The notes below the pieces were generated by a model, which had not been told where the DNA came from, did not search any database, and was given only the letters and a program-made list of their open reading frames with translations. A DNA stretch of 64,000 bases from Podarcis gaigeae. Taxonomy: Eukaryota. Shown one piece after another: positions 21,012 through 23,042 of this stretch (position 1 is the stretch's first letter; every line of letters begins with the position of its first letter). The position numbers and the translations under genes are program-made. The DNA lies in the NCBI GenBank assembly GCA_964106915.2, contig OZ066919.1; one strand, 5' to 3'.

Positions 21012-21211
21012 CAAATCCCAAATGCACACAAAGACTGGGTTTGTGCGTTGGCCTTTGTGCCTAGCCGGCCCATGCTGCTGAGTGCCTGCCGTGGTGGGAC
21101 AGTGAAGATCTGGAATGTCGATAACTTCACCCCCGTTGGGGACATCAAAGGGCACGACAGCCCCATCAATGCCATCTGCACCAATTCTAAGCACATATTC
21201 ACAGCTTCCAG
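21012..21211 (+). CDS. KIF21B: KIF21B WD40 exon ([15 protein letters not shown]...NSKHIFTAS)
   Basis: tctag|CAA ... CAG|gtgagt; 200 nt, phase 0-2. Confidence 0.95.
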
Positions 21212-21912
21212 GTGAGTGTTGAGGGCAAGGGCTTCTCTTTACCATGAACTCTTTGCCCGCTGCATCCCATCATGTGTAGTCAAGCTGCTCAAAAAAATGA
21301 GGTGCCACCAGAGATGAGCTGGTTACGGGTCCAAGCACCTGGTTGATGGAGGAGCCAGAGGAAGCCATTGCTTCTGTGGCTGCCCTGCTCACAGAGCCAT
21401 AGTGCAGTGGTGTCCATCTCAACACCGATCTCCCAGAGTCGCTTACTGTGCATCCTTGAGACCAAGGAACGGCTTTTTCATGGTTCTTTAGTTCACCTCT
21501 TCCTCATCACATCTCCAGCGAGATTCTGCATGGTGCTTCCTTGTTTGTACCTAGGGTTGATTTCTGGCACTGCCCCTTACGAAAGGGTGCCTTGCTGTAG
21601 TAGCCAGTAATTAGCACCTAAGGACATAGCTCCTCAACTGAGGCACAACAAGCTGGTTTGTCCCAGCAGTAATGAACTGAACTGAGCCACAGGGACTCTT
21701 GGTAACCCATCACAGTCCCATGGATATTCTGGCAGAGCAAGGGCCAAAGACTTGGCCAGAGGGCTTCCCCAGGGAGGGCAACCCAGGCCCCACCACTCAC
21801 TCTCTTCCCCTTTGGAGTCTCTAATCTCCTCTTTTCCGACCATGTTTCTTTTTTCCTTTTCTCTCTTCCTCTCTCTGTCTCTCTTCTCTCTCTCTGTTTC
21901 TATGTGCCACAG

Positions 21913-22012
21913 TGACTGCCGGGTAAAGTTATGGAATTACGTGCCTGGGCTCACCCCCTGCCTTCCACGACGCGTCCTTGCCATCAAGGGCCGTGCTACC
22001 AGTCTGCCTTGA
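21913..22012 (+). CDS. KIF21B: KIF21B last coding exon A ([32 protein letters not shown])
   Basis: Long CT tract then cacag|T; stop TGA at 22010-22012; matches the recalled long mammalian C-terminus. Confidence 0.92.
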
Positions 22013-22987
22013 CCCTCCTCCTGTCTTCTCTACTCTCCTGCTCACTTTTTCTTGCTGTGTTTCCCCTTCCCCTCTTTCTCGTCCCTAACCCCTTTCTCTG
22101 CGAGCTGATCTCAGCTGCTTCTTAACGGTATGCAATGCTTACTTGCTTTTCTTTCCCTTTAGGGCAGTAAGTGCAGGTGTTTTCCAAGGGAGACATTACT
22201 TCCCAGTTCACCTCCAAAGTGGGCATGCAAAAAAACCCCCATCTCACTTTCCTCCTTGACATGCCTGCTTGGTTGCATTATTAAGGCTGCATGCTTCACT
22301 TGGAAGCCTGTCCCACAGAAATCAATGAAGCTAACCTCTAATAAACTATGTTTAGGGTTGGCGTGATTTATGTGGAAATTGTTCAGTTTGATTGTGTGTT
22401 TTTTAATGTTTTATTTATTGCTTATGACTCATTTTGTTATGTTGCAGTTACGCATTTCCCTTCATGTTGTAAGCCACCTTGAGCATGGTTTGAACTGTGG
22501 AAAGGTGGCATACAAATAAAATTGTGTGTGTGTGTTCTGTGTGTGTAAATGTCAATGGGATTCATGTAGGGGGTGGGGGAGTACAACCCCCCAAGGCAGG
22601 TCCCAATTTGAATTCTGGTTTTGCAGTAAGTGAAGGTGTTTGAATTTTTCCCCTCTTGCTTTAAACAGGGCATTAGTTCTGGAATAGCCCATGTGCCTAC
22701 GTGGTGTCCTTGGGCATTGCAAGAGAGTGAAAGGCAGGAGGGGAAGGATTTGGGTGGGAAATCAGCACAGTGCCCAGATTAAGGAGTGTGGTCCAGATTG
22801 GGAGCCCATGTGGCTGCTTTTCCTTCAAAATAAATATTCACCTATCTACTAAGCACACTTTTTACAAGCATGTTATTTATGTAATCTGTGGTTTGCACCT
22901 CCATTTCCCCTTTATCTGAGCTTGTTCAGTGTTTGGTTCTTGACTTTCTAAATGTCATATTCCCACCTTTTCCTCTTCATTCTCCAG

Positions 22988-23042
22988 TGACTGGACAGTG
23001 AAACTCTGGAGTGCAAGGAAGCTACTGAACAGCACAACCTAG
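22988..23042 (+). CDS. KIF21B: KIF21B alternative last coding exon B (DWTVKLWSARKLLNSTT*)
   Basis: Polypyrimidine tract then tccag|T, same phase as exon A; completes the WD40 motif DxxVKLW; stop TAG at 23040-23042. Confidence 0.85.

Follow-up and report, generated by a model that had tools for sequence, protein, structure and literature searches.

The site that an earlier note read as a neural-type 4-nt microexon (GGCA) of lizard KIF21B is most probably the 3′ end of a known kind of cassette exon, here exon A, together with the donor that it uses (22128) and the opening 45 bases of the 3′UTR intron behind it; the GTAAGT at 22167 is likely cryptic, and the supposed 4-nt exon is likely not a real exon. 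The window, a stretch of 64,000 nt, holds the 3′ half of KIF21B, with exons spanning 1096 to 22009 (tblastn, query P0038). For the 200-nt exon that precedes the alternative region, the best named matches are lacertid KIF21B at 98%. Two introns flank exon A, of 701 nt upstream and 860 nt downstream (Table 1).

Table 1. Features of the alternative 3′ region of KIF21B, in window coordinates.
Feature	Position	Strand	Evidence
KIF21B 200-nt WD40 exon, upstream of the alternative region	21012..21211	+	tblastn with P0038; length as in mouse (PMC13078869, Table S2a)
Phase-2 donor of the 200-nt WD40 exon	21212	+	
Exon A, 215-nt cassette; stop 22010-22012, followed by 115 nt of 3′UTR	21913..22127	+	X1 contig and joint; translation; lengths
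Exon A donor GTATGC, in use	22128..22133	+	X1 joint; Thr-Val kept in 7/7 read-through models
3′UTR intron, 860 nt; spliced out or retained in exon A transcripts	22128..22987	+	X1: joint depth 24.4, read-through contig 9.3
Pyrimidine-rich conserved flank, 3′ end an acceptor-like TAG	22128..22163	+	11/12 codon positions the same in Anolis and in Varanus; role putative
GGCA, proposed microexon, without support	22163..22166	+	Letters present; contigs, mouse catalogue and protein tails unsupportive
Donor-like GTAAGT, likely cryptic	22167..22172	+	Codon 22167-22169 is Ala (Anolis P0034) or Leu (Varanus P0019)
RBFOX core motif GCATG, 3′ of exon A	22223..22227	+	Sequence; function presumed from mouse
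RBFOX motif TGCATG, 160 nt 3′ of the exon A donor	22288..22293	+	Sequence; function presumed from mouse
Repeat copy 2 (18/19) of 22164-22182	22623..22641	+	Sequence search
Last exon B, coding start; stop at 23040-23042, long 3′UTR after	22988..23042	+	Translation; X1 and X10 contigs start at 22987

Evidence for splicing came from contigs of relatives, in four (X1, X5, X10 and X15) of 24 listed runs; their status as RNA is a guess, none of the 24 being on record as such, and no tissue is given for them. In X1, a close relative, a joint with GT..AG ends leads from 22126/7 to 22987/8 at a depth of 24.4; the intervening letters are marked as not known, and the direct join is read from the contig ends. 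The exon A contig of the same run (21910-22127, depth 28.8) ends exactly at 22127 and its exon B contig (depth 56.2) starts at 22987, as does the exon B contig of X10. These ends fit a direct 22127-22988 join, because an extra GGCA would shift both of them by one base. A further X1 contig (22098-22412, depth 9.3) reads through the exon A donor and crosses 22163 unbroken. The depth of X1 at 22083-22173 is fully explained by the pieces listed (2711.8 versus 2710.4, by bin arithmetic), and the same arithmetic implies an unlisted skip contig with a depth of about 21.8 in X1 and about 6.2 in X10. The contigs of the relative thus contain three forms: exon A joined to exon B, exon A with read-through, and, by arithmetic only, a form that skips exon A. 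The joint is listed in one of the four runs; X5 has only low-depth pieces, X15 is without cover at 21901-22355, and neither has a relevant joint. Exon A is accordingly taken as a cassette of 215 nt that uses the donor at 22128, given the X1 joint, the contig ends, and the depth arithmetic.

This placement corrects the layout assumed previously. The proposed microexon and its upstream elements had been set between the two terminal exons; by the X1 joint, 22114-22127 still belongs to exon A, as its 3′ end, so that the branch-like CTTAAC lies inside that exon and the first TGC (22131) inside its donor. The earlier note also held out a fallback, in which exon A would extend to 22166 and be spliced to the last exon, leaving a 3′UTR intron about 155 nt after the stop and a predicted target of nonsense-mediated decay (NMD). 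That was right in kind, and the extended exon would indeed end 154 nt past the stop, but the donor was the wrong one: the working site is 39 nt upstream of it, 115 nt after the stop. Within the 3′UTR intron, three AATAAA hexamers (22340, 22515, and 22829) are potential early end points for read-through exon A transcripts, and 22363-22520 collects numerous unrelated contigs in each of the four runs, so that it is likely a dispersed repeat fragment.

Exon A is already known in mouse, where its arrangement with the last exon has already been tabulated. The penultimate Kif21b cassette exon of mouse lies at mm10 chr1:136173471-136173651. The tables of PMC13078869 give it as 180 nt long, with a 200-nt exon before it and the last exon after it, and class it as NMD_in with a score of 0.73 and long-read support; both external NMD columns give 0 for it. 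In PMC3041816, skipping of the Kif21b exon separates RT-PCR products of 311 and 131 nt, and the exon is 111.6-fold up in neuronal P19 cells; on visual comparison, the Kif21b probe sequence of that study agrees with exon A. The mouse exon and exon A are alike in their position between the 200-nt exon and the last exon, in the tail that they encode, in carrying an internal stop, and in being spliced on to the last exon, in the lizard from exon A's own donor (X1, close relative). In both, the stop precedes the last junction by over 50 nt (115 nt in the lizard, as expected of alternative splicing coupled to NMD) and RBFOX motifs lie downstream (GCATG at 22223 and 22289 in the lizard); a CT-rich tract at 21829-21900 provides the CU-rich element upstream. 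They differ in exon length (215 nt in lizard, 180 nt in mouse) and in the flanking introns (701 and 860 nt versus 469 and 385 nt). A Kif21b cassette described in a preprint, on another assembly, is presumably the same exon, given its equal length and the offset between the assemblies. That cassette is reported as RBFOX2-included and PTBP2-excluded (10.1101/2024.09.20.614071).

The two ends of the protein behave differently among 237 KIF21B-family proteins (the best 120 of 2,512 matches and 117 cluster members). Seventy-seven carry a type A tail and 122 a type B tail, 16 end at the in-frame stop of the intron after the upstream exon and three at the exon end, 11 have other tails, and eight are without the anchor. 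Six near-identical variants of 33 residues account for 61 of the 77 A tails, whereas the 122 B tails fall into 53 variants. The exon A tail is nearly invariant across amniotes, though its spliced form is a predicted NMD target, and X1 has both the spliced and the read-through form. One orangutan KIF21B model (P0052) has a 15-residue tail after the upstream exon that is neither A nor B. The tail predicted for the microexon form is carried by none of the 237, a weak negative within that set, and protein databases rarely model 4-nt exons. In the paralog KIF21A (L003, reverse strand, about 415-2120), the last intron has the same phase 2 and leads to a single last exon; a search of this locus with the motif DxxV(K/R)xW found no counterpart of exon A.

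The letters on which the microexon was proposed are all in place: CTTAAC at 22121-22126, TGC at 22131, 22136, and 22144, TAG at 22160-22162, GGCA at 22163-22166, GTAAGT at 22167-22172, and TGCATG at 22288. The last AG upstream of the acceptor is at 22113, the branch-like A lies 38 nt upstream of the acceptor with the three TGC between, and the proposed exon falls within the 3-27 nt size range between AG and GT. Translation of the splice form 21211 to 22163 and 22166 to 22988 gives the short tail that had been claimed, the 4 nt shifting the frame into a stop. A filter for such arrangements (YAG with 16 or more pyrimidines in 20, the preceding 27 nt free of AG, and GTRAGY 3-27 nt later) has its sole match in the 64 kb at this site, one on the + strand and none on the − strand, where 0.76 and 0.52 are expected by chance; this expectation is rough, as it includes real splice sites and would be far lower for one intron picked beforehand, but the whole window was scanned. 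The site is not confirmed above chance at the scale of the window. As for the TGC signature, the triplets are present but do not discriminate, as 24 of the 36 acceptor-like sites on the + strand and 21 of the 26 on the − strand also have a TGC within 40 nt. The U1 consensus is matched equally, at 6 of 11 positions, by the proposed donor and by the working donor at 22128. Two other products of the same acceptor, a 14-nt exon via the GT at 22177 and a read-through from 22163, were rejected, as translation of each gives a tail that is neither WD40-like nor conserved. Pairing of GTAAGT with 22137-22146 in a hairpin of the lowest-energy fold was no better than in shuffled sequences (z −0.76).

Neural microexons dependent on SRRM3/SRRM4 are, like the GGCA site, 3-27 nt long, bounded by AG and GT, and preceded by UGC motifs and a long stretch free of AG, and the median branch-to-acceptor distances of 34 and 45-47 in PMC12871342 bracket the 38 seen here. 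The site differs from them, however, in that its donor is unconserved, its exon is frame-shifting and absent from the mouse catalogue, its upstream elements overlap the working donor of another exon, and no junction was seen in the contigs. The mouse catalogue made with MicroExonator holds 2,984 microexons from 289 samples (PMC7821500); its Table S1 has two Kif21b rows, of which one lies in this intron (10 nt, four reads, class Excluded) and sits at the exon A acceptor, and a search of that table by coordinate gave no 4-nt exon in the intron. A literature search for KIF21B with microexon or microexons found no paper; supplement files 1-12 of the 19 of PMC7935315 hold only expression rows for KIF21B, and the supplement files of PMC4317164 other than file 1 hold no KIF21B row. 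Exons of 4 nt can be real, as a microexon of MPC1 illustrates (PMC9929638); that exon is described there as constitutively included, whereas inclusion of GGCA was not seen in the contigs.

Conservation of the region was read from automatic gene models that wrongly run through this DNA, taken back to the nucleotide level. Seven of the 237 models (Anolis, Varanus, Chelydra, three primates, and Ursus) read through the exon A donor, and all seven keep Thr-Val across 22125-22130, so that the GT at 22128 is conserved. The residues encoded by the branch-like site are kept in six of the seven. Two models, Anolis P0034 and Varanus P0019, reach the proposed donor; when the read-through frame served as a protein query, these two alone among ten candidates came up. 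Their codon at 22167-22169 is Ala and Leu, respectively; as neither an Ala nor a Leu codon begins with GT, the GT of the proposed donor is missing in both lizards, two species that both lie outside the likely family of the host lizard. GTA is one change from both the Anolis and the Varanus state and, on the codons alone, may be ancestral. Codons of these two lizards differ from the host in 6 of 8 comparisons in 22164-22175, compared with 4 of 50 elsewhere in 22107-22193 (Fisher p 1.3e-4); for the narrower span 22164-22172, the figures are 4 of 6 against 6 of 52 (p 0.006). Conservation extends as far as the AG codon and falls off directly after it; the AG itself is deduced from an Arg residue, for which codons other than AGR exist. 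Among closer relatives, X1 has one difference in 22013-22173, where the upstream intron would lead one to expect about five (p 0.03), and GTAAGT is identical in both close relatives that cover 22167-22172. With the donor GT missing in Anolis and Varanus and no 4-nt row in the mouse table, the splice sites are not conserved across vertebrates, and the claim of an SRRM4-type microexon that gives KIF21B a third C-terminus is not borne out.

A real 4-nt microexon confined to the lineage of this lizard, and mutually exclusive with exon A, is very unlikely. Exclusivity would follow because the branch point overlaps the exon A donor and the gap from that donor to the proposed acceptor is only 35 nt. 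Such a gap is too short for a normal intron. The exon would truncate the protein two residues past the preceding exon, with loss of the last WD40 strand; as its stop would sit in the last exon, the transcript need not be an NMD target. Every splice element is present, the pattern has no second match in 64 kb, and the branch-like site and pyrimidine tract lie within the conserved block; a working acceptor would also explain why conservation of the tract extends to the AG and why X1 has one difference rather than about five. Set against these points are the missing donor GT in both lizards that can be read, the absence from the mouse table, a chance expectation of 0.76 on the + strand for the pattern, and a shift of the frame, which SRRM3/4-type neural microexons usually preserve. 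In addition, the lost strand lies within the WD40 domain for which the paralog KIF21A has a crystal structure (the alignment of 7klj extends across the strand), so that the product would likely fold poorly, and read-through of the upstream intron already yields, on translation, almost the same truncation. Neither joint that such an exon would leave (21211-22163 and 22166-22988) is listed in the contigs of the four runs; this negative is weak, as contigs drop rare variants and a 4-nt bubble is of the type that assemblers discard, and minor, lineage-restricted use of the microexon may have escaped listing on the same ground.

Lower still stands the reading of GTAAGT at 22167 as a minor alternative donor of exon A, which would lengthen the 3′UTR part by 39 nt and leave the protein unchanged. 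Its consensus is perfect from +1 to +6, its U1 match equals that of the working donor, and read-through transcripts cover it; the observed joint, however, uses 22128, the listed X1 pieces explain all of the depth at 22083-22173, and its GT is not conserved. Least probable is a decoy role: the conserved branch-like site, tract, and AG would act as a decoy or minor 3′ splice site, in competition with U1 at the exon A donor that they overlap, and the balance between spliced, NMD-predicted transcripts and read-through ones would be set by that competition. The conservation up to the AG codon with its drop right behind, the branch-site residues kept in six of seven models, and the existence of both forms would agree with this, but the X1 read-through contig is unbroken across 22163 and the Arg codon from which the AG is deduced is not necessarily AGR. 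An element of PTBP, MBNL, or TIA type would look the same.

The stretch around the proposed donor recurs within the same intron. The stretch 22164-22182 and a second copy at 22623-22641 form a 19-nt direct repeat (18/19) whose members are 459 nt apart, and the pattern has only these two occurrences in the 1.5-Gb genome. Such a pair arose in 3 of 2,000 Markov simulations, but when the window is cut into 36 equal bins, four of them contain one, so that short local duplications are not rare here. Copy 2 carries the base implied by the Anolis and Varanus codons at 22174. An acceptor-like site at 22643-22672 adjoins this copy; an exon from it would start at 22669, and GGCA follows here too, without a GT after it. 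In a search for a docking-site partner of the repeat, the best duplexes (−26.1 and −20.5 kcal/mol) were within the range of 25 random intron pieces. The fullest combination of these elements, in which a conserved acceptor overlapping the exon A donor was made into a 4-nt exon by a lineage-specific GTAAGT, excludes exon A sterically, yields an NMD-immune KIF21B without the last WD40 strand, and shares its control with the 19-nt duplicate, is unlikely.

With exon A as the preferred reading, the contigs of the close relative show it both spliced from 22127 to exon B and read through, and its regulation may be modelled on mouse. RBFOX bound at the downstream GCATG sites would switch the exon on in neurons and PTBP would hold it off; the TGCATG at 22288, advanced in favour of the microexon, likely serves exon A, and the pyrimidine-rich conserved block behind the donor is a putative regulatory flank of the same exon. 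Inclusion would replace the last WD40 strand and the tail by a nearly invariant 33-residue end, and skipping would lead to the variable end encoded by exon B. The 50-nt rule predicts the spliced A form, and not the read-through form, to be an NMD substrate.

The WD40 tail of KIF21B helps microtubule binding (PMC5383399), and the microexon, if true, would be a lineage-specific 4-nt switch on that tail. The finding as it stands is an ordinary one: a known neural cassette exon of KIF21B has the same layout in a lizard, with a donor-like word behind it. It is an old point, tabulated in mouse, that the exon coding for a nearly invariant tail leaves, once spliced, a junction 115 nt after its stop, and the neuronal form of KIF21B is predicted to be NMD-prone unless the 3′UTR intron is kept.
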